Of a stretch of DNA of 64,000 nucleotides, positions 48,223 to 64,000 are shown one piece after another. Each line of letters opens with the position of its first letter. The first letter of the stretch is position 1. A program made the translations under genes and the position numbers. Origin of the DNA: Treponemataceae bacterium (GTDB lineage: Bacteria; Spirochaetota; Spirochaetia; Treponematales; Rectinemataceae). The stretch is from positions 864,001 to 928,000 of the forward strand of contig CAXXHO010000005.1 of the NCBI GenBank assembly GCA_963667725.2, written 5' to 3'. Below the pieces are notes generated by a model. The model worked only from the letters and a program-made list of their open reading frames with translations. It did no database searches and had not been told where the DNA came from.

Positions 48223-49257
48223 TCACGCTGTGGGAGCGGTGATCGAGCGGATGCTTCCGCGTATGATCAATTCGCCGCCGATGGATACCTTTTCGGAGGG
48301 CCGGCCCGGATCGGCGATACGGTCGAGGAGGAGCCGCATGGCGCGCCGCCCGATCGAGCGGTTGGAGACCTTCACGGAGCTGAGGCATGGCTCCATGAAC
48401 TCGTCGGAGGGGAGGTTGTCGAAGCCGACGATCGAAACGTCATCGGGGATGCTCTTGCCGGCGTCCTTCAAGGCTTGGATGCAGGCGTACGCGATGAAGT
48501 CGTTGACGCAGAACAAAGCGCTCGGCAGGTCCCCGGCGTTGGCGAGCAGCTTCGTCATGTCCTGCCTTCCCTTGTCGAAGGTCGGGTCGATCGCGAAGCA
48601 GTCGGCGGCGGCCACGGGCAATCCCAGGCGGTCCATCGTCTCCATGAAAGCATGCTCGCGTAGCCGGAAATTCCTTGTTTCGATCAGGCTCTTCACGAGG
48701 CCTATGCGGCGATGCCCGGCGCCGTGGAGATATTCCAGGGCTGCGCGCACCGAGGACTCGTTGTTCATGTCGACGAAGTCCAGGTCGAGCCATGGGCGGT
48801 AGGTGTAGACGACGACTATCGGCACCGACACCTCCGAGAAGAACTCGAGATCATCGTCATCCAGCGCCGATCCGAGTATGACCGCGCCGTCAATCATATC
48901 GGTGTTGAGGGCCTGCAGCACCTTTTGCGGATCGAATCCTTCCAATATCTGAATCTCGACGCGATAGTTCTCCGCCTTGGCCTCCTCTTCGAGGCCGGCG
49001 ATGTATTCGGAGATGAAGATGCGGTGAGCCTGGTAGGTGACTTGGCCCTGCTTGGCGATGTAGAGCATTCGGATCGCGCGCGTGCTCGCCGAGGGCGGCC
49101 GCTTCGATTTTTTCTGTTCATAGCCGAGCTTGGCGGCGATCGCGAGAACCTTGTCCCGTGTTTCCTGCCCGACGCCCGGCTTGTTGTTGAGGACGAAGGA
49201 GACCGCGGCCGGCGAGATGCCAGCCAAGTCCGCTATCTCGCGAATTGTTGCTGCCAT
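48223..49257 (-). CDS. LacI-family transcriptional regulator
   Basis: TIREIADLAGISPAAVSFVLN, FCVND, IPDDVSIVGFDN. Confidence 0.93.
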   Translation of the reverse strand: MAATIREIADLAGISPAAVSFVLNNKPGVGQETRDKVLAIAAKLGYEQKKSKRPPSASTRAIRMLYIAKQGQVTYQAHRIFISEYIAGLEEEAKAENYRVEIQILEGFDPQKVLQALNTDMIDGAVILGSALDDDDLEFFSEVSVPIVVVYTYRPWLDLDFVDMNNESSVRAALEYLHGAGHRRIGLVKSLIETRNFRLREHAFMETMDRLGLPVAAADCFAIDPTFDKGRQDMTKLLANAGDLPSALFCVNDFIAYACIQALKDAGKSIPDDVSIVGFDNLPSDEFMEPCLSSVKVSNRSIGRRAMRLLLDRIADPGRPSEKVSIGGELIIRGSIRSITAPTA

Positions 49258-49268
49258 AATGTATGGCT

Positions 49269-49307
49269 ATGATAAACCCAACTTAACAAACTGTCAATGT
49301 TAAGTTG
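49269..49307 (-). promoter_or_regulatory. promoter of the LacI gene with its -35 box inside an inverted repeat
   Basis: minus strand TTGACA(49297-49292)-17 bp-TATCAT(49274-49269); CAACTTAACA-N9-TGTTAAGTTG at 49279-49307. Confidence 0.6.
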
Positions 49308-49405
49308 ATTGTATGAGAATAGCATTCAATAATCCATTAAAATGTGTGAAATATTCGTTAATAACTAAATAGCAGTGTAAAATCTCACTAATTATATGAA
49401 TAATT

Positions 49406-49457
49406 AACTAAAACATTTTAGTTTTTTCTTGACAGCTTTCAAATCTAGATTAATAAT
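49406..49457 (+). promoter_or_regulatory. LacI-type operator and promoter of the GDPD operon
   Basis: AACTAAAA-CA-TTTTAGTT (49406-49423), then TTGACA(49429-49434)-17 bp-AATAAT. Confidence 0.55.
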
Positions 49458-49493
49458 TCAACGATTCCGGAGTCGAGAGAGGGGTTCGCATCG

Positions 49494-50345
49494 ATGATAT
49501 CGATCGCTGTCATACTTGCCGTGCTTGCGCTTGTCGCGGCTCTCTTGTTATGGATGCTATGGCCAGCCTCGCCAAGCCCCGAAATGCGAGTTCTTCTGAA
49601 GGGCCGCAAGTATGCCCATCGAGGCATGTTCGACAACAAGGCTGGGATCCCCGAAAACTCGCTCGCGGCCTTCGGCGCGGCGAGGGACATGGGCTATGGG
49701 ATCGAGCTGGATATCCATCTCGCGAGCGACGGCGAAGTCGTGGTATTCCACGATGACAAGCTCGCCCGCCTGTGCGGCGAAGCGCGGAAGGTCGAGGCCC
49801 TGTCGCTCGCTGAGCTCAAGGCTCTTTCGCTTCTGTCGACCGATCAGAAGATCCCCACCTTGAGGGAGTTGCTCTCCCTTGTGGACGGCAGCGTGCCGCT
49901 CCTCATCGAATTCAAGACGGGACTCCCCGGAAGCGCCGATGTCCGTCCTCTGTGCGAGGCCGCGTCCCGGCTTCTTGACGGATATGAGGGCGATTATCTG
50001 GTGGAAAGCTTCGACGCGAATGTCCTTTCCTGGTTCAAGAACAACCGCCCGAAGGTTATGCGCGGGCAGCTTGCCTTGGGATTTAGAACCTATGAACGCG
50101 CCCTCGGGAAAGAGGGCGCCGCGTCCATCCCCCTTATTCGGCGAAGAATGCTTTCATGGCTTCTGTACAACTATAGATCGAGGCCGCATTTTATTTCCTA
50201 CCGTTTTGAGGATGCCGGCTTGCCTCTGCGAATCTGCATGACGCTCGGCGCCATGGCGGCGGTTTGGACCGTCAGGAAGCGAGAGGATTCCGTTCGACTT
50301 TTGGCGAAATACGATTCCATCATCTTCGAGGGATTCAAGGCATGA
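49494..50345 (+). CDS. glycerophosphodiester phosphodiesterase with N-terminal membrane anchor
   Basis: YAHRG, PENSLAAF, IELDI, VFHD, LIEFK. Confidence 0.9.
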   Translation: MISIAVILAVLALVAALLLWMLWPASPSPEMRVLLKGRKYAHRGMFDNKAGIPENSLAAFGAARDMGYGIELDIHLASDGEVVVFHDDKLARLCGEARKVEALSLAELKALSLLSTDQKIPTLRELLSLVDGSVPLLIEFKTGLPGSADVRPLCEAASRLLDGYEGDYLVESFDANVLSWFKNNRPKVMRGQLALGFRTYERALGKEGAASIPLIRRRMLSWLLYNYRSRPHFISYRFEDAGLPLRICMTLGAMAAVWTVRKREDSVRLLAKYDSIIFEGFKA

Positions 50346-51232
50346 GCGAAAAAAAGTTGGCCGACCCATCAATCAGGAAAATCGCGAAAGGACAGATGTA
50401 TTTCACGGCGATGCTTACGCTTCTCTACGAGCTTCTTCACCTCACTCCGCTGAGGCGCGTCTACCAGAATTTAGTGAGCAAGGCCACCCGAGAAAAGAAG
50501 CGGGTGGGCGACATCCCTATCTTGGAATACTGCGTCGGTTCGCCCAAAGGCAAGCCCCTCGTATTCATGACCCACGGCTACGGCTCCTTCAAGGAGAGGA
50601 TGGCGAACTTCGCCATGCGGCTCGCGGACAAAGGGTATTTCGTCGTCGCTCCGGACGCCCTGGCCCATGGCGAGAGGAACGAACCCGGAAGGTACTCTAT
50701 CCTGCAGGTTGTCGAACGATCCGTGGCCGATATCGACGTTCTCATCGAATATTACAAGGCCAATTCCGATTCGGATACCGAACTTTTTTCCATCGTGGGC
50801 CGTTCGATGGGCGGCTTCGTCGCCTACAGCTACCTAGTGAATGGAAAATATCCGCCCCGGGCCATAGCGCCGACCATATCCTCTCCCGATTCGCGGGATT
50901 TGATGAATTACCAGCTCGGGCTTTCCTACTATGAGAACCACAAGATTCGGCACCTGACCGATCCAGTCGAGATAGCGCGGCGGAACGAGGAACTGGAGGA
51001 GGCGAGCCTCCTGGCGAGGGTCGTCAAGAACGACAAGGTCGCTGTCATCGTCCAGAACATGAGGTTCGATTTCCTCGTGGGGAGCGAGGGAGGCGACAAG
51101 CTGTACGAGGCGTGGAAGGATAAAAGGAAGGACGGAAGCTACCGCTACGTCAAGCCCTTCGCTTTCTTTCATTACATTCCCGATGTCGCCAAGAAGAATG
51201 TCATCGACTTTTTACAGGAGTGGGTTAAATGA
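50342..51232 (+). CDS. alpha/beta-hydrolase (esterase-like)
   Basis: THGYGS, PDALAHGER, nucleophile elbow GRSMGG. Confidence 0.8.
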   Translation: MSEKKLADPSIRKIAKGQMYFTAMLTLLYELLHLTPLRRVYQNLVSKATREKKRVGDIPILEYCVGSPKGKPLVFMTHGYGSFKERMANFAMRLADKGYFVVAPDALAHGERNEPGRYSILQVVERSVADIDVLIEYYKANSDSDTELFSIVGRSMGGFVAYSYLVNGKYPPRAIAPTISSPDSRDLMNYQLGLSYYENHKIRHLTDPVEIARRNEELEEASLLARVVKNDKVAVIVQNMRFDFLVGSEGGDKLYEAWKDKRKDGSYRYVKPFAFFHYIPDVAKKNVIDFLQEWVK

Positions 51233-52284
51233 GTACTCCTATGATCGAGCTGCGCGGAATTCATAAAAGTTACGGTGCCGAGAAGGTCCTCGAAAACCTC
51301 GACCTCCGTATGGAAAAGGGAGGCTTCACCGTCCTCCTCGGCCCTTCGGGCTGCGGCAAATCCACCATTCTCAGGCTGATCGCAGGGCTCGAGACGGCTT
51401 CGGCAGGGGAAGTCCTCATCGATGGCGCCAGCATGCGCGAGGTCCAGCCTGGAGACCGGGGCATCGCCATGGTTTTTCAGAACTACGCCCTCTACCCGAC
51501 GATGACAGTGAGGGAAAACATCGAGTACGGCCTCAAAAATGGCGGCATAGCGAAAAAGGAGAGGGACAGGCGTATCGCCGAGATCGCGGAGCTTGTCGGC
51601 CTCGGCGATTATTTGAAGAAAAAGCCGCAATTCCTGTCAGGCGGGCAGCGCCAGCGCGTCGCCCTAGCGCGCGCCATGGTCAAGCAGCCACGTATTTTCC
51701 TGATGGACGAGCCTCTCTCGAACCTCGACGCGAAGCTCCGCGGCCAGCTGAGGAAGGACCTGATCGAGCTCTACCGGAGGCTTGGAAGCACCTTCGTGTA
51801 CGTGACGCACGACCAGGTGGAGGCGATGTCCCTGGGGACGAAGGTGATCCTGCTCGAAAAAGGCAAGATCCGCCAGGAAGCAACCCCGGAGGAACTATAC
51901 GCCAGACCCGCGAATGTCTTCAGCGCGAGATTCATAGGGACGCCCCCGATGAACATCATCGAGGCGGATCCGGCGACCGCCGCGCGTTTCCCCGGGGCCC
52001 GCCACCTCGGCTTCAGGCCCGAAAAAGCCAGGATCACCGTTGATCGGTCCGCGGTGCCTTCGGGGGATTTGATTTTCCCCGGCGAACTTGTCACTCATGA
52101 GATGCTGGGATCCGAGGTGCTCTATCAGGTCAACGGGCCCGGGTGGAAGGTCCAGGTGAAGCTGTACGAGAATCGAAGGATCCCCTTCGGGCCGGTGTTC
52201 ATCCATGTGGACAGGAAGGATATCTTTTCCTTCGATGGAGATGGAAACAGCATGGAAAGCCCGGCTCCGGGAGGGAACCGATGA
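51229..52284 (+). CDS. carbohydrate ABC transporter ATPase (UgpC/MalK-like)
   Basis: GPSGCGKST, VFQNYALYP, LSGGQRQR, DEPLSNLDA. Confidence 0.93.
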   Translation: MSTPMIELRGIHKSYGAEKVLENLDLRMEKGGFTVLLGPSGCGKSTILRLIAGLETASAGEVLIDGASMREVQPGDRGIAMVFQNYALYPTMTVRENIEYGLKNGGIAKKERDRRIAEIAELVGLGDYLKKKPQFLSGGQRQRVALARAMVKQPRIFLMDEPLSNLDAKLRGQLRKDLIELYRRLGSTFVYVTHDQVEAMSLGTKVILLEKGKIRQEATPEELYARPANVFSARFIGTPPMNIIEADPATAARFPGARHLGFRPEKARITVDRSAVPSGDLIFPGELVTHEMLGSEVLYQVNGPGWKVQVKLYENRRIPFGPVFIHVDRKDIFSFDGDGNSMESPAPGGNR

Positions 52285-53147
52285 AAGCCCTCAAGGCCAG
52301 ACCCTACCTGATGATCGCCCCCGCCATGACCATTTTCGCGGTCTTCGCCCTCTACCCCATCATCTACATGCTTTATCTCAGCTTCTTCAAATGGAATATG
52401 CTTGGTCCGAAGATCTTCATAGGGCTCAAAAACTACGCGAATCTTCTCTCTAGTAAGGAATTCGGCAAGGTTTTCTCCAACTCCCTCTACTACATGGCGC
52501 TGAGCGTCCTCCTCTCGATCGTCATTTCCCTTGCGGTCGCTCTCTTTCTTAAAAAGAAGACGGCGCTCAACGGCTTCCTCCGGGCTTCGATTTTCGCCCC
52601 CTACATTATCTCCCTGGTGTCGGTCTCCCTCATCTGGCTTTGGTTCATGGATCTCGACTATGGACTGCTGAACTTCATCCTCGGGCTGTTTGGGGTCAAA
52701 CCGGTCGATTGGCTCTCCGACAGCCACATGGCTCTCACGTCCCTGGTTATCGTGTCGGTGTGGAAAGGTCTCGGGTTCAACACGCTGATCCTGGCCTCGG
52801 CCCTCCAGGCTATTCCGGAGTACCTCTATGAAGCCGCCGAGCTCGACAAGGCCAAACCTTTTTCGGTATTTCGCTCGATCACCTTGCCGATGATCTCCCC
52901 TACGCTTTTCTTCCTCGCTCTCACGAACATGATCGCCTCCCTCAAGGCTTTCGAGACCGTGGCCCTGATGACTCAGGGGGGGCCGTCCAACTCGACGAAC
53001 ACCTTTGTCTACTACATTTACCAGAATGGTTTCCAGTTCTTCAAGATTGGGTACGCCTCGGCCGCGGGGGTCGTCATGATGCTGTTCATCGGGGCGTTCA
53101 CCATCGCGTATTTCATGGTTCTGGACCGCAGGGTCCATTACCGATAG
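52281..53147 (+). CDS. carbohydrate ABC transporter permease (UgpA-like)
   Basis: FIGLKNY, YEAAELD EAA motif, GGPSNST, GYASA. Confidence 0.9.
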   Translation: MKALKARPYLMIAPAMTIFAVFALYPIIYMLYLSFFKWNMLGPKIFIGLKNYANLLSSKEFGKVFSNSLYYMALSVLLSIVISLAVALFLKKKTALNGFLRASIFAPYIISLVSVSLIWLWFMDLDYGLLNFILGLFGVKPVDWLSDSHMALTSLVIVSVWKGLGFNTLILASALQAIPEYLYEAAELDKAKPFSVFRSITLPMISPTLFFLALTNMIASLKAFETVALMTQGGPSNSTNTFVYYIYQNGFQFFKIGYASAAGVVMMLFIGAFTIAYFMVLDRRVHYR

Positions 53148-53157
53148 GAGGGCGGCG

Positions 53158-53994
53158 ATGATACGAGCGCGACGTGCGATCCCCCTAACGGGACGACTCC
53201 TCGTTTCCCTCCTGATTTTCCTCGTATACTTCGTCCCCTTCTACTGGATGGCGCTGACGGCGATCAAGTCGAAGGGGGAGATGCTCCAGTTCCCGCCGAC
53301 TTTCTGGACGGCCCATCCCAGCTGGGACAACTTCGCGGCGGCATTCGGCGCCTTTCCCTTCTGGAAATACCTCTGGAACAGCATTCTCGTCTCAGGATCC
53401 ATCATCCTCTGTCAAATCTTCACGGTCGTGCCGGCGGCCTACGCCTTTGCCCGATACAGATTCAAGGGCAGCGGCATCTTCTTCGGACTCACCCTGGCCT
53501 CGGTGATGATTCCGCCGCAGCTGGTCTTTCTGCCCGTGTTTCTGCTGATGAACCGCTTCGGCCTCATCAACCACTACGCGTCCCTCATCTTACCGCAGGC
53601 GGCAAGCGCTTTCGGGATCTTTATGCTCAGGCAGACGTTCCGGCAGGTGCCGGAGGAAGTCCTCGAAGCGGCTCGCATGGACAAGGCTTCGGAACTCTCC
53701 ATCATCACGCGTATCATGATCCCGATAGCGATGCCCACGATTTCGGCCCTTGGCCTCATTACCTTCATCGGTACTTGGAACGATTATTTCTGGCCTCTGG
53801 TGCTCACCACAAGCGATGCTGTTCGTACGCTTCCCGTGGGTGTCGCCTCACTGAAGTTGCTGGATAGCGGAATATCCATACCCTACAACGTCGTGATGGC
53901 GGGCAACCTTATCTTGATCATCCCCGTTTTGCTCATCTACCTCATCGCTCAACAAAGAATAACGAAAGCATTCACCTATATGGGTGAAAAATAG
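53158..53994 (+). CDS. carbohydrate ABC transporter permease (UgpE-like)
   Basis: AAYAFAR, EAARMD, WNDYFWP. Confidence 0.9.
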   Translation: MIRARRAIPLTGRLLVSLLIFLVYFVPFYWMALTAIKSKGEMLQFPPTFWTAHPSWDNFAAAFGAFPFWKYLWNSILVSGSIILCQIFTVVPAAYAFARYRFKGSGIFFGLTLASVMIPPQLVFLPVFLLMNRFGLINHYASLILPQAASAFGIFMLRQTFRQVPEEVLEAARMDKASELSIITRIMIPIAMPTISALGLITFIGTWNDYFWPLVLTTSDAVRTLPVGVASLKLLDSGISIPYNVVMAGNLILIIPVLLIYLIAQQRITKAFTYMGEK

Positions 53995-54018
53995 ATTGCT
54001 CTACTAAAGGAGTCGGAT

Positions 54019-55299
54019 ATGGCAAGGAGTCTTGAGATTCGCGGCGCCAGGGTTTTCTTGGCCGCTATCGTCCTGGCGCTATTGGGGGCTCAGGCCCCGG
54101 CGGCGCAGGCCAAGCCCATCGAGCTCAATTACTGGTACGCATATTCTGGCGTGGTTCAGGAAACCAACGAGACTCTGATCAAGAATTTCAACGAGACCGT
54201 GGGAAAGCAGAAGGGTATCCATGTTACCGGAGCCACGCAGGGGACCTATTCTGACGTACAGCAGAAGGTTCAGGCGGCCACAATAGCCGGGAATCCGCCC
54301 AATGTCTTCGTGCTGGAGATGGGCGTGACCGGGATGCTGGGCATGAACGACATCACGGAACAGCTGGACAGCCGGGTCGCCGCCGACAAGTTCGATCTTT
54401 CCGATTTCCAGCAGGCCCTGGTGAAGAGCTGCAAGTACGATGGCAAGCTGTACGGCCTGCCTTTCATGCCCTCCAACCTTATCCTGTACATGAATACGAC
54501 ACTTCTCAAGCAAGCGGGCCTCGATCCGGCCGGGCCCAAGACCTGGGACGATTTCGCCCGCTATTGCAAGACCATCAAGGAAAAGACCGGCCTTTACGGC
54601 CTGACCCTGGCCAGCAACATCTGGTTCCTTGAGGGAATCCTTCTCGAGTCGGGGACTTCCGTCCTGAGCGACGATGAAAAGTCCACGAACATCAACACCA
54701 AAATGGCCTACGACGCCGTCAAGTTCTTCAGGGATCTCAAGGACGCCGGTTATATCAGGATCATGGCCAGCGCCGATTCCGCAAAGCTGATGTCGGACGT
54801 CACGAACCAGAAGGCGGCCATGTGGTTCTACACGACGGCGGGGATTACGACCTTCATGGGTATGGGAAAGAACGCGGGATTCTCGGTGAACACCGCCTTC
54901 ATGCCGAAGCAGGTGAGTTACGGAACCTCGGCGGGAGGCTCCAATATCGTAATTTCCAGCAAGGGAACCAAGCAGGAAAAAGACGCGGCCTGGGAATTCC
55001 TCAAGTGGGTGACGGCGACCGAGCAGACGGTCTTCGTCAGCTCCAAGACGGGGTATATGCCGAGCCGTAAGACAGCGATCGAGTCTCCAACGATGAAGGC
55101 TCTGTACACCGCGTTGCCGCAGTTCAAGGTGGCGATCGACCAGATGGCCTACGCCGACGGGCGCCCGATGAACCCCGCCTATACGGAAGCGTCCTTCGTC
55201 ATCACCTCGGCTCTCGACGCGGTATGGGTCAACGGCCAGAACATCGAAAAGGAGTTCGCCGAGGCTCAGAAAGCCGTCGACAAGCTGCTGCGCGAATAG
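54019..55299 (+). CDS. ABC transporter substrate-binding protein (family 1, UgpB-like)
   Basis: signal peptide, YGLPF, LLKQAGLDP, PKTWDD, AAWEFLKW, TGYMP. Confidence 0.9.
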   Translation: MARSLEIRGARVFLAAIVLALLGAQAPAAQAKPIELNYWYAYSGVVQETNETLIKNFNETVGKQKGIHVTGATQGTYSDVQQKVQAATIAGNPPNVFVLEMGVTGMLGMNDITEQLDSRVAADKFDLSDFQQALVKSCKYDGKLYGLPFMPSNLILYMNTTLLKQAGLDPAGPKTWDDFARYCKTIKEKTGLYGLTLASNIWFLEGILLESGTSVLSDDEKSTNINTKMAYDAVKFFRDLKDAGYIRIMASADSAKLMSDVTNQKAAMWFYTTAGITTFMGMGKNAGFSVNTAFMPKQVSYGTSAGGSNIVISSKGTKQEKDAAWEFLKWVTATEQTVFVSSKTGYMPSRKTAIESPTMKALYTALPQFKVAIDQMAYADGRPMNPAYTEASFVITSALDAVWVNGQNIEKEFAEAQKAVDKLLRE

Positions 55300-55372
55300 A
55301 TGGAAGGCAGCGCCTCGGATCGGCCGCGGGCGCTGCTGGCCTTAAGTCAGTCATCGCTTCGGGAGAGCCTCT

Positions 55373-56383
55373 ATGAACGCACGGAGATCCATCCTCATCG
55401 ATACGGATATAGCCTTCGGATCGCCGAAAGCCGACGCCGACGATGTTCTTGCCCTCATCCTCGCCATGTCCATCCCGGGACTGGAAATCGCGGCCATCTC
55501 GCCGGTAGGAGGGAATGTTTCGCCGGATAGGGCGAGCCGCAATCTGCACGGATTTCTGTCGCGGATCGGAATGTCTTCCATCCCCCATGCCTGGAGTTCG
55601 GCGATGCCTCTCGATCCGCGGTCGAGGGTAAAAGCCGAAGTGTGGGACAGGGCGGCCGAGGATATGATCGTAAGGCCTGAGGACGCGCCGAAGATCGATT
55701 CCGTCGACCTCATCCTGAAGACTCTCGCCGAGGCCACGGCGCCTCTGACGATAGTCGCCATAGGCCCTCTCACGAACCTCGGGATGGCCTTGGCGAAAGA
55801 GCCGGCTGTCGCCGCGAAAATCGGCGAGATCGTCATGATGGGCGGCTCCCGGGAGGTCAGGGGTCTGCACGGCTTGGCCGAGTTCAATATCTGGGTCGAC
55901 CCGGCGGCAGCCGCGATCGTATTCGGTTCAGGCTTGCCGATCAGGGTCTTCGGGCTCGATGTCACCAAAAAGCGCAAGGTGCTTCCTCAGGATCTCGCTC
56001 CCTGGGCTGTCTCCGATTCGCCTCTGGTCCGGGACATTCACGAGAGCGTCCTGGGCTTCATGCGGTACAAGGCAGAGCTGTTCGGCCAGGACTACCGCGT
56101 CGGGTATTTCCACGACGCTTTCCCCATCGCGTATTTTCACGATTCCGGCCTTTTCAGGTTCAACCCTTACGGGATAGAGGTCGGCCTCGACGACGATGAG
56201 GCCTATGGGGTGACGCGTATCGACTTCGGTCCCGCCGACGGCCCGCACCTATTCGCCGTCGATGTCGACGACGCCGCGCTGACGGAGTGGGTCATTCGAA
56301 CGATCGCGGAATCGCCGGCCTGCCTTGCAGGTCATGAAATACGCGTTCCGGGATCAAGGGATGCGGCTTCTCCCAATATATAA
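55373..56383 (+). CDS. nucleoside hydrolase (IU-NH family)
   Basis: IDTD...DADD, GGN, IGPLTN, MGG, AEFNIWVDP, GLDVT, FHD. Confidence 0.9.
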   Translation: MNARRSILIDTDIAFGSPKADADDVLALILAMSIPGLEIAAISPVGGNVSPDRASRNLHGFLSRIGMSSIPHAWSSAMPLDPRSRVKAEVWDRAAEDMIVRPEDAPKIDSVDLILKTLAEATAPLTIVAIGPLTNLGMALAKEPAVAAKIGEIVMMGGSREVRGLHGLAEFNIWVDPAAAAIVFGSGLPIRVFGLDVTKKRKVLPQDLAPWAVSDSPLVRDIHESVLGFMRYKAELFGQDYRVGYFHDAFPIAYFHDSGLFRFNPYGIEVGLDDDEAYGVTRIDFGPADGPHLFAVDVDDAALTEWVIRTIAESPACLAGHEIRVPGSRDAASPNI

Positions 56384-56533
56384 AGGTAACGGGCATCTAC
56401 CGGATCGTATTTAGCGCGTATTTTTTCCTCCGGCGGGATACCGGAGGAAGTAGGAGACAGGAACATTTAAATGTTTCATGGAGAGGCTTTAGTGCTAAAA
56501 AATAAAGAATCGTATTCTATTGACTGTCAGTAG

Positions 56534-56590
56534 GCAGAACACGTTGGCACCTTCGCAGGATGAACCTGCGGCAGGTTCAACTTGTTAGTG
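56534..56590 (+). other. 57-bp imperfect palindrome with attC-like architecture
   Basis: GCAGAAC...GTTAGTG ends around a long imperfect stem with bulged bases; isolated, no integrase in the window. Confidence 0.3.
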
Positions 56591-56794
56591 CGAAAAGGGG
56601 TTCCCCCTTCACACATGAATGGCGGCAGGAAAATTAAGAATTCTCACCCTACCTCCAGAATGGCAACTATTCTTTGCAGTTCAAGAACCCCGTTATAGGC
56701 CTACCGAGAATTCAGCGCTTTACAAAGGCCAAGACTCTGAAGGATGTATAGGAGTTGTTGAGGGATGGATGAGTAAGGGCCAATTTAAAAAACT

Positions 56795-57676
56795 CTATTT
56801 TACGAGTGATTCGTAGCCGGATATTACGTCGAACAGCTCGGAATCGATGCCGCTCTGTCGCAATCGATGAAAGGAACGGTTGAGTTCTTCCATCAGCTCG
56901 TCGATGTTTTTTTCGGCGCGCCGCATCGCCGAAAGGCGGCTCGAATTTTCGCTTGCCAAGGATTCGGCGCATGCTCTAAACAGCGAGACGAAGAGGTATT
57001 CACGTATCAGCGCCCGTATAGTCAAAGTAGCGTTACCGATTATTTCGGGAAGGTTAGCGGTTGGCCAGGGCAATGCGGCTCGTTCGCTGAACCAGATTTC
57101 ATCCAGAGGCAAAAGACGTTGGCTGACTGGAGCGCAGGCAGTGCCGGATGTCGGACGATTGTAGAAGAGGTAGAACTCGTCGATTTCGCCGCGGTCGCGG
57201 CGGTTTTCGCAATCGTCGAGTATCCGGGCAATCAATGGGGTGATGGCTTTGACGGAATTCGGCACAGGAAACAGGGCGATCAGAGGCATGCCGGCATCAT
57301 CGAGCCGCGCTCGCGCCCTTTCGCCGACGACCCATGCGATTATTTTGCCCGGCATAGCGGCCAGCGTTTTAATCGCGAAATCGGCTATCTGGTCATTGAA
57401 TTGACCTACCATCCCTTGGTCGGAGCCAAAGACTATCGCGCTTATCGCTGCCGCCCTGCCTTGTGGCTTTGTGAGCGGGGTTGGCGGGAGGGCGTTTTTA
57501 CGCAAGCAGACGCTCAAACCCAACTCGATGGTACGTTGGTAATCGGCCAATGCCAATACCGATTTTTCATATTGTCCGATAGTGGATGCCGCAAGCGACT
57601 TCATCGTATGGACAACGGATTTCAGATCTCCAGCGCTGTCGATCTTCCGGCGAAGGCTTGCCGAAGTCTCACTCAT
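56795..57676 (-). CDS. atpG: N-type ATPase gamma subunit
   Basis: [57 protein letters not shown]. Confidence 0.93.
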
Positions 57677-59225
57677 GATCTTCTTGACCTTCGCGTGCCT
57701 GTTGGGTTCCCGCAAGGGCTAGACGCGCAAGATCGAGTATCGCTTCGCGGTCTTCCTCGCTCAACAAGGCGGCGGTATCGAATCGCGCGATTATTTCCGC
57801 CGGAATCTTCGCCGCGGCTTCATGTACGGCATCCTCGGCGCCCTTTACCTTTTCGAAGGGTACAGGATCAAAGAGATTCGCGCCCAATGCCAAGAGGCTG
57901 GATATTTGCGCGGCCACCGAAACCGGGGCAAATTCGGGCTGTTTGAGAAAGGCGCGGATTCGCCGGCCATGCTCGATGATCCTGGCCGTATCCGCGTCTG
58001 GGTGAGCTCCGAAACGGGCAAAGGTTTCGAGTTCCTCGAATTGCGCATAGGCGAGTTTTAAATCTCCGACTGCCTCGCGATAGGCAGCCCTCTGAGCCTT
58101 GCCTCCCACGCGCGAGACTGATTTTCCCATGTCGACGGCGGGCAATATGCCCAATTCGAATAGTCTCGGTGAAAGGTATATCTGCCCGTCCGTAATGGAT
58201 ATCAGATTGGTCGGGATATACGCGGATATATTCTGGGCTTCAGTTTCTATTACGGGAAGGGCGGTGAGCGAACCGCCTCCGCGTTCTTCGCGGAGATGGG
58301 TAGCGCGTTCCAAGAGCCGTGAATGAATATAGAAGATGTCGCCCGGAAAGGCTTCGCGGCCGGGCGGACGGCGAAAGAGGAGGGAAAGTTCGCGATATGC
58401 GCGGGCATGCTGGGTCAAGTCGTCGTAGACTATCAGTACGTCCTCTCCGGCTTCCATAAAGTACTCTGCGATGCTGGTCGCGGCATAGGGAGCGATATAG
58501 GAAAGCCCAGGAGGGTCGTTGCCTTCTGCGACAACCACTACAGTGTAACCCAAGGCGCCATTTTCCCGCAGCACAGCCACGGCCTTCGCCACAGCCGAGG
58601 CGCGTTGGCCGATGGCGCAATAGACGCAGACGACACCCGTATCGCGCTGATTGAGGATGGTATCGATGGCGATGGCTGTCTTGCCCGTCTGGCGATCTCC
58701 CAGAATCAACTCGCGTTGCCCGCGCCCGATGGGGATCAGCGCATCGATGACCTTTATACCGGTCTGCAGGGGATCCACAACGGGGGCGCGGTCCATGATC
58801 GGCGGGGCGGGTCGCTCTATCGGCATCCGTACGGTGCTTGCCACAGGTCCCTTGCCGTCGAGAGGTCTGCCGAGAGGGTCTATGACGCGTCCGCGCAATC
58901 CGTCCCCAGCGGCGATGTCCATTACCCTACCCGTACGCGCTGCTTCATCGCCCACATGCAGTCGCCGGGATTCACCGAGCAGGATGACGCCGATTTCCTT
59001 CTCGTCCAGGTTGAACGCGACGCCGAATTCGCCACCGGGAAAAGAGATCAACTCTTCGAATCCCACGGAGGGAAGGCCTGATACCTTGACTACGCCAGAG
59101 GATACATCGGTGATTATGCCTATCTCCTGCGGCATCAAGAGCGGCGCATATTCCTTCCGCGCCTTTTCGATTCCCGCGAACGCGCGGTCGATACTTCGCT
59201 TCAAATCTACAACGTGGTCGCTCAT
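57669..59225 (-). CDS. atpA: N-type ATPase alpha subunit
   Basis: [37 protein letters not shown]. Confidence 0.96.
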
Positions 59226-60010
59226 GGACGCTCATCCCTGGATTCGGCATTTGCTTCTTCCCCGACGTCACCGTCGACGATTTTTCCCATGGCTTTCAGG
59301 TAATTCGCAATGTTCCAGGCTACTTTTTGTCCGTTGGATGCCAATTCAATCCCGCCGATCAGTTCCGCCTCGACCAGGAACCTTAGCTTGATTTCCTCCT
59401 GGAAAGTCTCGTTGAGCGCCTTTTGTATTTCCTTTCGCTGTTTTGCCGTCAGTTCGAACGCGCTTCGGACTAGCGCTGGTTCAGATGCCGAGGCAATGGC
59501 TTTGGCGAATTTTTCCTTCGCCGGACCTTCCAGCGCGCGCACGCGGCGAATAAATACCGCGCACAGGCTGGCTTCCAGGCTGGTTGTGGAAAGATCGGCC
59601 AGGACTTGGCGCGAGATCGCAAATACCTCCTGTTGAGCCCGGCTTGTTATTTCGCGGTTCAAGCGCTTTGCGTCGGTCTTCAGGGCTGCCATATGTTTTG
59701 CATTCATGTCATCGGCGGATTTCTTGGCTTCCTCGATGAGACGCGCCCTTTCGGCGTCCGCCTCCAATTTAGCCTTCTTCAACAGCGCTGATCGCGCTTT
59801 ATCGAACTCATCGTTTTTATGCTGGAATTCATTGCGCTCTTTTTCCGCTTCGGCAATTTTCCCCCCGGCCTCCGCGATTTCGTCCGCGATTCGCTTTTCG
59901 CGTGTCGCGATGGCGGTAAGAATCGGTTTATAGAGGAAGCGTTTCAGCAGCAGCACCAGGACGACGAAATTGAGTATCTGGGCGACGATGGTGAACCAGT
60001 CGATGCTCAT
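59222..60010 (-). CDS. atpF: N-type ATPase b subunit (long form with delta-like C-terminus)
   Basis: [19 protein letters not shown], coiled coil, C-terminal SAFEL and LIGGIEL. Confidence 0.92.
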
Positions 60011-60013
60011 GGG

Positions 60014-60295
60014 TCATTTTCCCGCGGCTTGAGCGATGGCAGAGTTCCAGAAGGGATTGGCGAAGATGAGGATCATGGCGACCACAAAACAATAAATGGC
60101 CGTGGACTCGATCATCGCCAAGCCGACGAACAGAGTCCTGGTTATGGTGGAGGACGCGTCCGGCTGTTGCGCCAAAGAAGTCAACGCGGTTGAAACAGCC
60201 TTCCCTTCTCCGAAAGCGGGAGCCATCGTGCCGATTGTGATGGCGAAGCCGGCGGTGATGATGGATACGATAGCGATAATAGTCATGCTGTCCAT
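60014..60295 (-). CDS. atpE: N-type ATPase c subunit with Na+-binding signature
   Basis: GEG in helix 1, QQP loop, IESTAIY. Confidence 0.95.
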   Translation of the reverse strand: MDSMTIIAIVSIITAGFAITIGTMAPAFGEGKAVSTALTSLAQQPDASSTITRTLFVGLAMIESTAIYCFVVAMILIFANPFWNSAIAQAAGK

Positions 60296-60990
60296 GATTT
60301 CTCCTTTTCGACGGGTACCGTTCTTTTTGCATGGGTGGTGGCGGCGGCGATATACACCGCGGCCAGGATGCTGAAAATGTAAGCCTGCACCATCCCGGTC
60401 AGCAGGCCGAGCGCTGTCATGATGATGGGGAAAATAAAAGGCGTGATACTCACCAGAATACCGACGATCATGGAACCGCTCATCATATTGCCGAAGAGAC
60501 GAATGGCGAGGGCCAAGGTGCGGGAGATTTCGCTTATAATGTTGAACGGGAGCATGATGAATGTCGGCTTGACATACAATTTAAGGTAAGCGCCGAGCCC
60601 TTTCTCCCCGATGCCGAAAATGGGCACTGCCGCGAAAACGCATAGGGAAAGCGCCGCGGTGGTAGAAAGCGAGCCCGTTGGCGGTTCATAGCCGGGAACT
60701 ATCGTAAAGAAGCTTGCCGCGGCGATAAAGATAAAAAGCGTACCCAGAAAGCCAAGGTATTTTTCAGGCGTGCCGAGGCCAATTTCCTCTATCTGTTTTT
60801 CTATGGCCGTAACGATGATTTCGAGCATGTTCTGCCATCTGGAGCGAGAGTGTGTCACAGATAATTTCCGAGTGATCAATATCGAACCGACAACCAGGAC
60901 AACCATGATCGCCCACGTGAATAGGATGGTGGCATTGAGTTTCACGAATCCAAACTGCCAATAAATAATCTCGTCAGGGCTAAGTCGCAT
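60283..60990 (-). CDS. atpB: N-type ATPase a subunit
   Basis: PPTGSLSTT, MLPFNIISEISRTLALAIRLFGN, VQAYIF. Confidence 0.95.
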   Translation of the reverse strand: MRLSPDEIIYWQFGFVKLNATILFTWAIMVVLVVGSILITRKLSVTHSRSRWQNMLEIIVTAIEKQIEEIGLGTPEKYLGFLGTLFIFIAAASFFTIVPGYEPPTGSLSTTAALSLCVFAAVPIFGIGEKGLGAYLKLYVKPTFIMLPFNIISEISRTLALAIRLFGNMMSGSMIVGILVSITPFIFPIIMTALGLLTGMVQAYIFSILAAVYIAAATTHAKRTVPVEKEKSWTA

Positions 60991-61012
60991 GGAAAGCCTC
61001 TTTCAGCATCCG

Positions 61013-62161
61013 CTAAAACCGATAGGTCGCGGCAAGACCTGTTTTCGAAGGCATGCCTTCCGAAGCTACCACAAGGATTTCCCCGCCTTTTTCCGCGACC
61101 AAGTCGCTCAGATCGTCCAACGTGTCGTCCACGCGAGGGTCGGAAAGGTCCCCAAGTTTTATCTTTCCCGTCACCGGGTCGAGCCGGCCGGGGATCTGTT
61201 TCCCGCTTTCGATCAACAGCGTGGCGACCCGTCCAGCCAAAGCCGCCTTGGCAACCTCGGCAAGATTGTCGCTGCCAAGCCCCTTGGAATGGGCTTGCTG
61301 GTATTCATCGCCCGCGGCCTTCAGCCGAGCGGCATACTGGGGCTCAAAATGCTCCCATGCGCGGTCGCTGAGTTCTTCCATGGATACGGATTCGGGATTG
61401 AGCGTTATCCCCTCCGCGGCGAGATAGGGATTCTGGCTGATACGATGGAACATTGCCTGGTGTTCGCTCAATGCCGCGAGGATCAGTGGGAGACCTGATG
61501 GCCGCGAGTAATGTTCCAGTATTCCATGATCGATGACACGGAAGAAGCGCTCGGTATAGCTGTCTATTTCATCGCTTTTGCCGCCCTGCCCATGGTGCAT
61601 CGGCGTACTCTGCGAGCCTATGCCGCCATAGGAGGATACTGTTGAATGCGGCTCGGGCAACTCTTTGCCAAGCGCTTCGGTGATGGTGTGAGGTATCCCA
61701 GGGATGATATCGATTTCGTCAAGACCGTCGCGGTCGCCTTCGAATAGACGGATCGAATGACGGCTCACTCCCAGCACCTGGTATCGCCCCACGCCTTGCA
61801 GAAGCCGTTTGAGCGGCTTGGTATGGAAGCTGTCCGCCACCACGGTCAGCGCGGCAAGCGGGCGTTTTGTCTGAAAAACCTGAAATAACCCGGGCGCCGA
61901 GAATACCGCCAAGCCATCGAAGGTATGATTCCAAAACTCGGCATCGCTGACGAGTGCCTTGTATGGTTTTAATAGCGCGGCGATTTCAGTCGCCGAATAC
62001 TTTTCCTGGAGCGATTGCTCCAGTTCTTTGACCAAATTCCGAAACAGGATCGGATCCCGCTGATTTTCCGGGTAGTGGCGATGCGTTGGCTGGTACAGCG
62101 ATAGACAGGGTGGTTGTGCGCCAGTGAGTTTCGTGTTGAAGTCTCGGGTAAGTAAATTCAT
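61013..62161 (-). CDS. bacterial aeRF1-fold protein (baeRF family 3-like, Balon-like)
   Basis: CLSLYQPTHR, DPILFRNL, FWNHTFDGLAVF, VADSFHTKPL, HGQG, FFRVID, LPLILA, GRVATLLIE, DDLSDLVAEKGG, GLAATYRF; no GGQ. Confidence 0.8.
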   Translation of the reverse strand: MNLLTRDFNTKLTGAQPPCLSLYQPTHRHYPENQRDPILFRNLVKELEQSLQEKYSATEIAALLKPYKALVSDAEFWNHTFDGLAVFSAPGLFQVFQTKRPLAALTVVADSFHTKPLKRLLQGVGRYQVLGVSRHSIRLFEGDRDGLDEIDIIPGIPHTITEALGKELPEPHSTVSSYGGIGSQSTPMHHGQGGKSDEIDSYTERFFRVIDHGILEHYSRPSGLPLILAALSEHQAMFHRISQNPYLAAEGITLNPESVSMEELSDRAWEHFEPQYAARLKAAGDEYQQAHSKGLGSDNLAEVAKAALAGRVATLLIESGKQIPGRLDPVTGKIKLGDLSDPRVDDTLDDLSDLVAEKGGEILVVASEGMPSKTGLAATYRF

Positions 62162-62490
62162 GGGTTAACTCCTTTTGAGATATTGGAAAGCGCCTTTTGG
62201 TCAGCCGGATTCTTGTCCGTGATAGGCGATTTCATCCGCCAGATCAGGGCGAACCGGGCCATGGTGAAACCGATCAGACATGTCAGCAGACGCTGCCAAT
62301 GGCCTGCCGATACAAAGAAAAATCCCGCGATGATAATGCCCGTTCGCAGGAGAAGACTGCCGGAAAACAGCAATGCCGGGTGTTTGGATGAAACACCTTT
62401 TTTCACCGTCCACCAGAGGCCTAAGAAAAAGGAGACACCCAGCGCTCCGCCTGCCAACCATGAAAGAAAAAGCGCGATAGTATCATTCAT
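62158..62490 (-). CDS. atpR: N-ATPase subunit AtpR
   Basis: GVSFFLGLWWTV, SLLLR, CLIGFTMAR; operon position. Confidence 0.85.
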   Translation of the reverse strand: MNDTIALFLSWLAGGALGVSFFLGLWWTVKKGVSSKHPALLFSGSLLLRTGIIIAGFFFVSAGHWQRLLTCLIGFTMARFALIWRMKSPITDKNPADQKALSNISKGVNP

Positions 62491-62821
62491 TCTTATCTTC
62501 CTTGCTTTCCAGCATTTCCTTGTCTTCCTTAACGACCCAATGCCAGGCATTGAGGCAGCCGATCACAAGCCCGGCCACCAAGAGTGTCAATGTCCACACA
62601 TGGTTGCCTTGGCCGCGCTTGTCCAGCCAGAGACCGATCAGCGCGCCGAGCAGCGTGGGAATAACCACCGACCAGCCGATAAGTCCCATCATGCCCAAAC
62701 CGAACCAAACTCCCTTCGCGGAGTTCCGCCTTGCCTTGAGTTTTCGCGCCGCCTTCGCCTTGATTTCGGAGGCCAAAGTCCCTTTTTCCTCCAAGGGCTT
62801 GGCCGATTCTTTCCTATTCAT
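62483..62821 (-). CDS. atpQ: N-ATPase AtpQ (AtpZ/AtpI-like)
   Basis: RKLKARR, WFGLGMMGLIGWSVVIPTLLG, GLWLD, NAWHWV. Confidence 0.88.
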   Translation of the reverse strand: MNRKESAKPLEEKGTLASEIKAKAARKLKARRNSAKGVWFGLGMMGLIGWSVVIPTLLGALIGLWLDKRGQGNHVWTLTLLVAGLVIGCLNAWHWVVKEDKEMLESKEDKNE

Positions 62822-63203
62822 ATTCGATGATCCCCAAACGCCGCAAAAAACCCGCTTCCAGCTTTGCCAAGGCAGAACGCATGGTTTGTTCATGTTCATC
62901 AAGCGTCAGGAATTCCCGCTCCACCGCCTCGCTCAGTTGATCCAAGTCGGATCCTCCTATCGCCCGACGCACGGAAACGAGCACATTCGATCCTGTTTTT
63001 ACCAGGATCCCTTCGTCCACCGCGATAAAGACTTCGCCTTCATGTTTGGTTTCAAAACTGAGGATTCCCGGCACGAGCGCGGCGACACAGTCGAGCCTAT
63101 GCGGCAACAGCCCGAAAGAGCCCTCTTGGGTCTCTGCAACGATGCGCGACACATCCGTTTCCTCAGCGAAGATTCCGAAAGGCAGGAGCACCTTAAGATT
63201 CAT
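62814..63203 (-). CDS. atpC: N-type ATPase epsilon subunit
   Basis: [30 protein letters not shown]. Confidence 0.9.
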
Positions 63204-64000
63204 GGGCGGACTTCTCCTTCGCTTCATCGACCGCTCCGATCATATAGAGCGCGCTCTCAGGATAATCCTTGAATTCATCCTGGAGGATCCTTTCGCACCC
63301 ATCCAAGGCATCTTTGAGACTGACGAGCCTTCCTGGGAGGCCGGTAAACTGCTCGGTAGTGAAAAAGGGCTGGGTGAGAAAGCGTTCAAGGCGCCGGGCA
63401 CGGGCGACGATATCGCGATCCTGTTGCGAAAGTTGTTCGAGGCCCAGCATGGCGATGATGTTTTTGAGTTCCGCGTATTGCGCCAAGGTGCGCCGTATCG
63501 CTTGGGCCAAGAGGTAATGCCTTTCCCCTACGATACCGGGCGTGGCCATCTTGGAATTGGATTGGAGGGGATCGATAGCCGGATAGAGTCCTTCGCTGGC
63601 CCTTTTACGTGAAAGTGCGATGGATGCGGACAAATGCGAGAAGGTATGTACGGCCGCCGGATCGGTGAAATCATCAGCTGGCACGTAGACCGCCTGGATA
63701 GAAGTGATGGCGCCCTTGTCGGTATTGGCGATTCGCTCTTCCAGCGATGCCAGCTCGGTGCCCATGGTCGGTTGATAGCCCAGCCGGGAAGGCATATGTC
63801 CCATAAGGCCCGAGACTTCCGAGCCGGCCTGGATGAAGCGAAAGATGTTGTCGATCAGCAGAAGAACATCTTGGCGTTCGTCGTCCCTGAAATATTCTGC
63901 CATGGTGAGGGCCGCGTGCCCGACACGGAAGCGACTGCCCGGAAGCTCGTTCATCTGGGCGAAGATCATAACCATATTGGGGAGCACGCCGGCCTTCTCC
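63193..64000 (-). CDS. atpD: N-type ATPase beta subunit (3' part; start lies beyond the window)
   Basis: [57 protein letters not shown]. Confidence 0.95.

Follow-up and report, generated by a model that had tools for sequence, protein, structure and literature searches.

The genome of a Treponemataceae bacterium (GTDB family Rectinemataceae; NCBI GenBank assembly GCA_963667725.2) carries a gene for a homologue of the ribosome hibernation factor Balon inside the operon of an N-type rotary ATPase (N-ATPase). We studied this gene, which belongs to family 3 of the bacterial aeRF1-fold (baeRF) proteins, in a 64,000-nucleotide stretch of contig CAXXHO010000005.1 (positions 864,001 to 928,000 of the forward strand), hereafter the window, to which all coordinates given without a locus name refer. 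From 64000 down to 56795, the operon reads atpD, atpC, atpQ, atpR, baeRF, atpB, atpE, atpF, atpA and atpG. An earlier note, made from the letters of the window alone, had described a 382-residue gene between atpR and atpB with an ATGA overlap, an AAGGAG sequence and a gap of 22 nucleotides (nt), and both the list of open reading frames (ORFs) and the sequence itself agree with this description. The features of the gene and of its upstream junction are as follows.

61013 to 62161, minus strand: Balon-like gene of baeRF family 3, 382 amino acids; aeRF1 fold, loop HHGQGGK at residues 189-195, neither GGQ nor NIKS
62158 to 62161, minus strand: ATGA overlap, the baeRF start codon lying on the TGA stop codon of atpR (direct sequence reading)
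62169 to 62174, minus strand: AAGGAG, a Shine-Dalgarno-like hexamer 7 nt 5' of the baeRF ATG, within the hydrophilic tail of AtpR

The baeRF gene ends in a TAG codon (61015-61013), followed by a spacer of 22 nt, containing GAAAGAGG, that leads to the atpB ATG at 60990. AtpR also bears a hydrophilic C-terminal tail of about 20-25 residues in the closest operons (loci L028, L033, L034 and L063), where atpB starts roughly 5-9 nt past the atpR stop codon, or overlaps it, and where the tail of atpR carries the ribosome-binding site of atpB. Compared with these operons, the baeRF ATG of the window stands at the usual starting place of atpB. Because it occupies this place, and because atpB has a spacer with its own GAAAGAGG, the baeRF gene is set exactly between the two cistrons with neither of them damaged.

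This spacing indicates that the baeRF product most likely comes from the same transcript as the pump genes. A consensus scan, with counts at chance level, returned no promoter-like site 5' of the baeRF gene inside atpR. Searches against Rfam gave no match at gathering score in loci L027 and L016 and none at E <= 0.1 in window positions 55000-64000, and thus no riboswitch or leader. The earlier note had seen no terminator after the gene, which is nearly right: terminator-like sites are not above chance (12 found versus 9.0 +/- 3.7 in shuffled sequence), and the one weak hairpin at the 3' end of the gene is weighed below. Short contigs from sequencing run X9, which we guess to be cDNA with DNA possibly present, cover baeRF positions 61114-61357 and 61537-61711 as well as parts of atpD, atpB, atpE, atpF and atpA; they bridge neither baeRF junction and are uninformative on co-transcription.

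The encoded protein has an aeRF1 fold and belongs, as a homologue of Balon, to baeRF family 3. Pfam assigns it to baeRF_family3 (PF18845; E 4.8e-47; score 160.9 bits, gathering cut-off 31.5; alignment over the whole profile, positions 1-168 of 168), with weaker matches to baeRF families 6, 7, 8 and 11, in agreement with the assignment made by eye in the earlier note. Its sole NCBIfam match is NF052287, the 'AOC03_06830 family ribosome hibernation factor' (E 5.9e-50, residues 16-382 aligned to 9-361). A phmmer search against all Protein Data Bank (PDB) chains recovered only Balon, chain B of 8RD8/8RDV/8RDW (8rd8_B, E 1.5e-15, residues 17-378 aligned to 14-365). Helena-Bueno et al. (Nature 2024, PMC10901736) describe Balon from Psychrobacter urativorans (PDB 8RD8/8RDV/8RDW) together with the mycobacterial homologues Msmeg1130 and Rv2629 (PDB 8V9J/8V9L/8V9K).

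With 28 homologues as input, AlphaFold gave a model whose mean predicted local distance difference test score (pLDDT) is 85.3 and whose predicted template modelling (TM) score is 0.74, with low confidence only in residues 172-194, the loop at the GGQ position. Its five best Foldseek matches in the PDB are Balon and Msmeg1130 (8rdw_B, E 1.5e-23, TM 0.69/0.72; 8v9j_z, TM 0.66/0.69). Rv2629 ranks eighth by E-value (TM 0.60/0.63), after two aRF1 entries of lower TM-score. Whole-chain TM-scores are at most 0.45 for aRF1, eRF1 and Pelota, and Dom34 also scores lower than the Balon-type matches. As modelled, the protein appears to keep all three aeRF1 domains, and its C domain contains a two-strand hairpin (strands 324-327 and 334-336) that aligns with the corresponding segment of Balon; in Balon, this hairpin is described as contacting EF-Tu (PMC10901736). 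The fold proposed in the earlier note is thus supported by comparison with all three of the hibernation factors.

Like Balon, Msmeg1130 and Rv2629, the window protein combines a three-domain aeRF1 architecture and a C-domain hairpin with a flexible loop at the place of GGQ. Neither GGQ nor NIKS occurs in its 382-residue translation, and the loop reads MHHGQGGK. Across the 28 aligned homologues the loop HG[HQ]GGK is nearly invariant, with H190, G191, G193 and K195 at least 90% conserved. Just seven of the 28 rows have the glutamine (the window protein, P0001, P0003, P0005, P0041, P0051 and P0090) and the consensus residue is histidine; therefore, the glutamine of HHGQGG is not a conserved catalytic one. 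At the N-terminal side, a conserved T-H-R-x-x-P-x-N-x-x-D-P-I stretch aligns to the region of Balon around the HP motif, an N-domain feature that contacts the decoding centre in Balon. The proline of THR-x-x-P is nearly invariant and is preceded by His or Tyr among the homologues, the motif residues being taken from the text of the Balon paper rather than from coordinates.

Three observations count against strict membership in the Balon family. The NF052287 score of 170.7 bits lies below the Balon equivalog cut-off of 330, which makes the protein a homologue of Balon and not an orthologue. THREHP of Balon aligns in the phmmer match with THRHYP of the window protein, so that HP becomes YP, and the identity between the two proteins is about 19-20%. 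The conserved HG[HQ]GGK loop and the location inside a rotary ATPase operon further distinguish the window gene from Balon.

The remaining genes of the operon, all on the minus strand, were assigned as follows.

63193 to 64000, minus strand: atpD, beta subunit, cut by the window end and continuing outside it
62814 to 63227, minus strand: atpC, epsilon subunit of the alternate F1F0 type (TIGR03166)
62483 to 62902, minus strand: atpQ (PF09527, TIGR02230)
62158 to 62490, minus strand: atpR (PF12966 at 90.9 bits, TIGR03165); probable start MNDTIALF, its ATG overlapping the end of atpQ by 8 nt
60283 to 60990, minus strand: atpB, Fo subunit a (TIGR03306 altF1_A, 365.7 bits)
60014 to 60295, minus strand: atpE, c subunit (TIGR03322); GEG in helix 1, IESTAIY in helix 2
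59222 to 60010, minus strand: atpF, long b subunit with a delta-like C-terminus (TIGR03321; PF00213 on residues 177-241)
57669 to 59225, minus strand: atpA, alpha subunit (window ORF)
56795 to 57715, minus strand: atpG, gamma subunit, the last gene of the operon (window ORF)

The matches to PF12966, TIGR03165, PF09527, TIGR02230 and TIGR03306/03322/03321/03166 all exceed their cut-offs and identify the enzyme as an N-ATPase, or 'alternate F1F0' ATPase. AtpE reads AFGEGKAV and IESTAIY, with the helix-1 Glu and the helix-2 ESTxxY that make up the sodium-ligand set and predict sodium specificity; a GEG/ESTxxY-type pattern is described for sodium-binding N-ATPase c subunits by Dibrova, Galperin and Mulkidjanian (2010, PMC2881411). 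The operon is a variant of the known N-ATPase operon. It shares with the atpDCQRBEFAG arrangement of that account the gene order, the presence of atpQ and atpR, the lack of a delta gene, the long atpF, the sodium-type c subunit and signs of lateral transfer, but differs in having an extra gene for a soluble protein between atpR and atpB. In the same account, one-gene and two-gene insertions are mentioned only for cyanobacterial operons.

Within the genome, which is 97% complete, PF00231 (gamma) matches nothing but the gene of the N-ATPase operon itself, and two V/A-type ATPase operons lie on contig C3 of the same genome at about 948-951 kb and 1078-1081 kb. Because the sole F-type gamma subunit belongs to the N-ATPase, this enzyme accompanies V-type enzymes here and not a standard F-type synthase, as is also the case in Methanosarcina.

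Beyond the window end, a gene for a 796-residue XFP phosphoketolase (L027:1600-3990) immediately precedes atpD on its strand and is itself preceded, again on this strand, by a gene for a DDE transposase. The earlier note had reported no transposon scar. This holds at the baeRF gene itself. The transposase gene stands upstream at a distance of about 8 kb, on the far side of the phosphoketolase gene. Neither a baeRF homologue nor AtpR was found in any of 40 relatives, of which 2 share the genus, 22 the family and 16 the order of this genome. Below the operon, the host gene cluster is 82-86% identical to that of a same-genus genome up to position 56459, about 335 nt below atpG, where the synteny ends. 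The GC content at third codon positions (GC3) is 0.57-0.71 in the atp, XFP and baeRF genes (0.634 in baeRF) and 0.73-0.80 in three flanking host genes. A metagenome locus of the same species, L018, has the same gene order at 99% identity, and an 18.9-kb contig from run X5, which belongs to another study, has this order as well, in a gap-free alignment of 6997 nt with 124 differences.

Given the absence from relatives, the break in synteny, the upstream transposase gene, the shift in GC3 and the order shared with L018 and the X5 contig, the block of phosphoketolase, N-ATPase and baeRF genes looks laterally acquired. Its left boundary alone is placed: the right-hand flank beyond the transposase gene (L027:6400-9800) has no match in four relatives. 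In composition the baeRF gene resembles the rest of the operon. The arrangement is stable within one species-level population, three sources of which contain an undamaged copy of the gene at 98-99% identity. The host cluster downstream of the island (48223-56383) contains genes for a LacI-type regulator, a GDPD phosphodiesterase, an ABC sugar transporter and a nucleoside hydrolase. On the other side, about 9 kb past the window end, a 3027-residue ORF lies on the plus strand of contig C5 (L027:9836-18919).

We surveyed other N-ATPase operons by seeding with AtpR in five phyla, fetching at most 20 kb per place and searching the resulting 67 other loci by tblastn with the window proteins. The seeds were 5 further matches over the cut-off in 401 genomes of the phylum of the window, 30 in a set of 301 genomes, 21 strong ones among 57 listed in a set of 301 genomes, and 7 and 4 in sets of 301 genomes each. 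The survey does not include two weak AtpR matches (G346 and G724) or the 36 of the 57 listed places with E > 1e-10. In all 55 of the 67 loci that matched both genes, the distance from atpR to atpB is -14 to +150 nt. Eight more loci have an atpQ-atpB distance of 267-364 nt, which leaves space for atpR alone, and 4 loci have a rearranged order. The atpR-atpB junction holds a baeRF match in none of the 67 other loci, and the earlier note was therefore correct that this position is normally empty. A baeRF gene at this junction was seen only in the one species-level population represented by the window, L018 and the X5 contig.

Elsewhere within the operon, baeRF genes recur in 2 of the 67 other loci. 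L028, from the phylum of the window, reads atpA-[216]-baeRF-[33]-HPF-[66]-atpG, with the distances in nt, a baeRF identity of 60% to the window protein and both inserted genes confirmed by Pfam. L039 reads atpA-[90]-baeRF-[60]-atpG, with a baeRF identity of 33%. The arrangement of L028 resembles that of the window in the baeRF subfamily, the N-ATPase clade, the orientation and the tight spacing, but it differs in the junction used (atpA-atpG versus atpR-atpB), in the HPF partner, which the window lacks, and in the branch of the baeRF tree. Whether the window operon is a one-off, as the earlier note had left open, thus has a divided answer: its junction is so among the surveyed loci, while baeRF genes inside N-ATPase operons are not, and a decayed block with N-ATPase remnants, described below, adds a further instance.

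An XFP gene stands 5' of atpD in L029 and L087, and a polyphosphate kinase 2 (PPK2) gene lies beside the operon in L092 and L093; XFP or PPK2 genes adjoin N-ATPase operons of the clade closest to that of the window in several phyla. Other insertions were seen as well. A Na+/H+ exchanger gene (PF00999) lies between atpQ and atpR in L039 (10143-11405), L064 (2313-3620) and L067 (7537-8817), and probably in L095 (10155-11146). Found in at least 3 of the 67 operons, it is a second recurrent insertion and fits a sodium cycle. A cyanobacterial operon of rearranged order has an acyltransferase-family gene (PF02458; L080:13805-15145) between its atpA and atpG, and L067 also holds a 168-residue ORF of unknown nature inside its N-ATPase operon. 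In L085, L086, L090, L092 and L094, gaps of about 300 nt separate atpF from atpA or atpB from atpE. We considered that they might hide small genes such as HPF, which was not borne out: the gaps in L085, L092 and L094 are longer ends of the atpB or atpF ORFs, L090 has only a 60-residue ORF, and for the other two gaps no ORF is listed.

Viewed from the side of the factor, the family is large, and at least 4636 homologues of the window protein were counted in a protein collection, many of them 60-68% identical and from very different phyla. A plasmid collection gave 20 distant tblastn matches, all at 33% identity or less. We collected 23 loci of close baeRF relatives, 14 from genomes and 9 from metagenomes, and scanned the neighbours in 21 of these (all except L015 and L018). 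Within the available flanks, no N-ATPase genes lie near baeRF in any of the 14 genome loci (49-60% identity over the matched stretch), two of which, L014 and L015, end at a contig edge with a partial baeRF gene only. Among the metagenome loci, N-ATPase genes accompany baeRF in L018 and, in decayed form, in L022 and L024.

The two decayed loci read baeRF-HPF-XFP (truncated)-PPK2, followed by remnants of atpD and atpG. These remnants (L024:8344-8937 and L022:3828-4219) consist of a 97-residue ORF with the N-terminal alpha/beta beta-barrel domain and, directly after it, a 99-residue C-terminal piece of atpG. The 97-residue ORF is most simply the start of atpD, and L022 and L024 thus look like an N-ATPase operon with its interior deleted. 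Over the 21 scanned loci, the neighbours of baeRF include HPF (L004, L024), XFP (L021, L024) and PPK2 (L002, L024), together with P-type ATPases, Mrp antiporter subunits, MscS channels, Usp, CsbD, DUF2267/CBS and ferritin-like proteins. AtpR is absent in all five tested genomes that bear 50-56% identical baeRF homologues, from which it follows that the function of the baeRF protein does not depend on the ATPase.

We built a maximum-likelihood tree of the 28 baeRF homologues. The window protein groups with relatives of 83-90% identity (support 100/100), the L028 protein falls in a separate clade of seven rows (95/93), the L024 protein in a separate clade of five rows (95/99), and the L039 protein lies far outside these clades. 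An approximately unbiased test rejects a clade of the window and L028 proteins (log-likelihood 57.9 lower, p 0.00045), the group having been named after inspection of the tree. Since the operon-borne factors of the window, L028 and L039 sit in different branches of the family tree, the phylogeny suggests repeated capture of baeRF genes by N-ATPase operons. The N-ATPase subunits of the window and L028 are close (73% identity for AtpA, 81% for AtpD) whereas their baeRF proteins belong to distinct clades, which implies either independent entries at two junctions or replacement of a resident gene. Under either alternative, comparison of the sequences indicates that the association between baeRF and the N-ATPase is renewed and not merely inherited.

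The window protein is a further member of a known baeRF family by hidden Markov model. Family 3 (PF18845) is placed in the baeRF-1 clade, for which non-catalytic A-site binding and a linkage to HPF are predicted, and the loops are described as poorly conserved in most baeRF families (Burroughs and Aravind 2019, PMC6514570, main text). The neighbours reported for Balon genes are chaperones, sigma factors, HdeD, OsmB/OsmY, RaiA, RtcB and drug-resistance genes (PMC10901736, main text), and homologues of the window protein likewise often lie by HPF/RaiA and stress genes. An ATPase or ATP synthase neighbourhood of Balon genes is not mentioned in the main text of PMC10901736, nor is an F-type, N-type or rotary ATPase neighbourhood of baeRF genes in the text of PMC6514570, supplementary data aside in both cases. 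Our literature search, which did not extend to supplementary tables, found no published link between N-ATPases and ribosome hibernation. One paper that names both Balon and ATP synthase treats them as unrelated topics, and in a genome study of Nitrospirales, where N-ATPases are discussed, release factors and phosphoketolase are both absent from the text.

Taken together, we consider it probable, if well short of certain, that the window gene encodes a Balon-type hibernation factor that was inserted into a laterally acquired operon and is co-expressed with an ATP-driven ion pump. By analogy with Balon, Msmeg1130 and Rv2629, the product would be a non-catalytic protein of aeRF1 fold that occupies the A site of idle ribosomes. 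Its gene would have entered cleanly at the atpR/atpB junction of the acquired block of phosphoketolase and N-ATPase genes, taking over the translation start region of atpB, while atpB would have gained a new ribosome-binding site in the 22-nt spacer downstream. The factor would then be translated from the operon mRNA, and conditions that induce an ATP-consuming Na+/H+ pump, such as low-energy or ionic stress without growth, would also call for the parking of ribosomes. The upstream phosphoketolase could supply acetyl-phosphate, and hence ATP without respiration, to feed the pump. The baeRF protein itself would not act on the ATPase.

Several points weigh against this explanation. The link is rare, with an internal baeRF gene in 3 of 68 operons counting the window, which speaks against a general association; it rests on gene order; and the atpR-atpB junction is specific to one lineage, with no counterpart in the 67 other loci that would indicate a conserved module at this site. 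Six of the nine metagenome loci of close relatives have no N-ATPase genes near baeRF. HPF is absent from the window operon, the only PF02482 match of the genome lying on another contig. The near-invariant HG[HQ]GGK loop may hint at more than passive binding, and the weak terminator-like hairpin (5-bp stem, 61040-61024) stands at the 3' end of the gene. The module coupling the pump to hibernation that the earlier note had proposed is accordingly plausible and its theme recurs in two other operons, but it is rare and, at this junction, confined to a lineage.

An accidental insertion offers another account, in which a mobile baeRF gene landed in the operon during or before the transfer of the island and has been tolerated with no functional link. 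Such an origin would fit the lack of baeRF at this junction in all 67 other surveyed operons, the spread of the family over many phyla at 50-68% identity in varied contexts, as expected of an often-moving gene, the nearby transposase gene, and the unrelated genes that also occur inside N-ATPase operons (the acyltransferase-family gene of L080 and the 168-residue ORF of L067). We nevertheless regard it as unlikely. Three operons have taken up factors from three baeRF branches at two positions, each in the orientation of the operon and with short spacers, where a rough estimate, not a computed test, gives about 0.1 expected by chance in about 0.5 Mb of operon sequence, assuming at most one or two baeRF genes per 4-Mb genome. 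The insertion in the window also kept the start/stop overlap and gave atpB a new ribosome-binding site, and the gene has stayed intact at 98-99% identity in all three sources.

A different function for the protein is less probable still. Were it an active rescue or release factor, the HG[HQ]GGK loop would reach the peptidyl-transferase centre and its targets would be stalled ribosomes, such as those that arise when membrane proteins are made under stress, and not idle ribosomes to be silenced. The conservation of H190, G191, G193 and K195 and the Gln between the glycines of HHGQGG agree with this, and some baeRF families are considered possibly catalytic in the text of Burroughs and Aravind (PMC6514570). 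We hold such a role to be quite improbable: the protein lacks GGQ, the consensus at the Gln position is His, the best structural matches are three hibernation factors and not release factors, and HPF adjoins the homologues in L004, L024 and L028, a neighbourhood typical of hibernation factors. Co-option for the pump, by control of Fo subunit translation, membrane insertion or assembly or by direct regulation of the enzyme, had been the alternative of the earlier note. Its one argument is position, between atpQ/atpR and the Fo genes atpB, atpE and atpF, and it appears very improbable. The genomes with 50-56% identical homologues but no AtpR argue against it, as do the 21 homologous loci, which lie by stress and ion-transport genes with N-ATPase remnants in only two. 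In addition, the baeRF genes of L028 and L039 lie between atpA and atpG and not before Fo genes, the other surveyed operons do without such a gene, and the protein appears to retain the three aeRF1 domains and the hairpin that in Balon binds EF-Tu.

We therefore return to a hibernation factor co-expressed with the pump. The physiological role of N-ATPases is still described as largely unexplored in the abstract of a paper on the Burkholderia enzyme (PMC5376962), and Balon-family factors were first described in 2024, with their regulation open; the window operon offers a clue to both. More tentatively, and as a possibility that we would not yet call likely, the N-ATPase, a Balon-type factor with or without HPF, phosphoketolase and PPK2 may form a mobile 'maintenance-energy' cassette, in which the repeated, separate entries of baeRF genes at different junctions of the operon would reflect selection for strict co-expression. 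If so, non-respiratory ATP would drive the pump and keep the membrane energised while factors from the same transcript park the ribosomes, and the purpose of the N-ATPase would be the survival of non-growing cells. Three operons with three factor lineages lead to the testable hypothesis that the pump is a device for dormancy or low-energy conditions. Cells may turn on ribosome hibernation and ATP-driven ion homeostasis at the same time, and these operons would serve as natural constructs for finding the condition that induces both.

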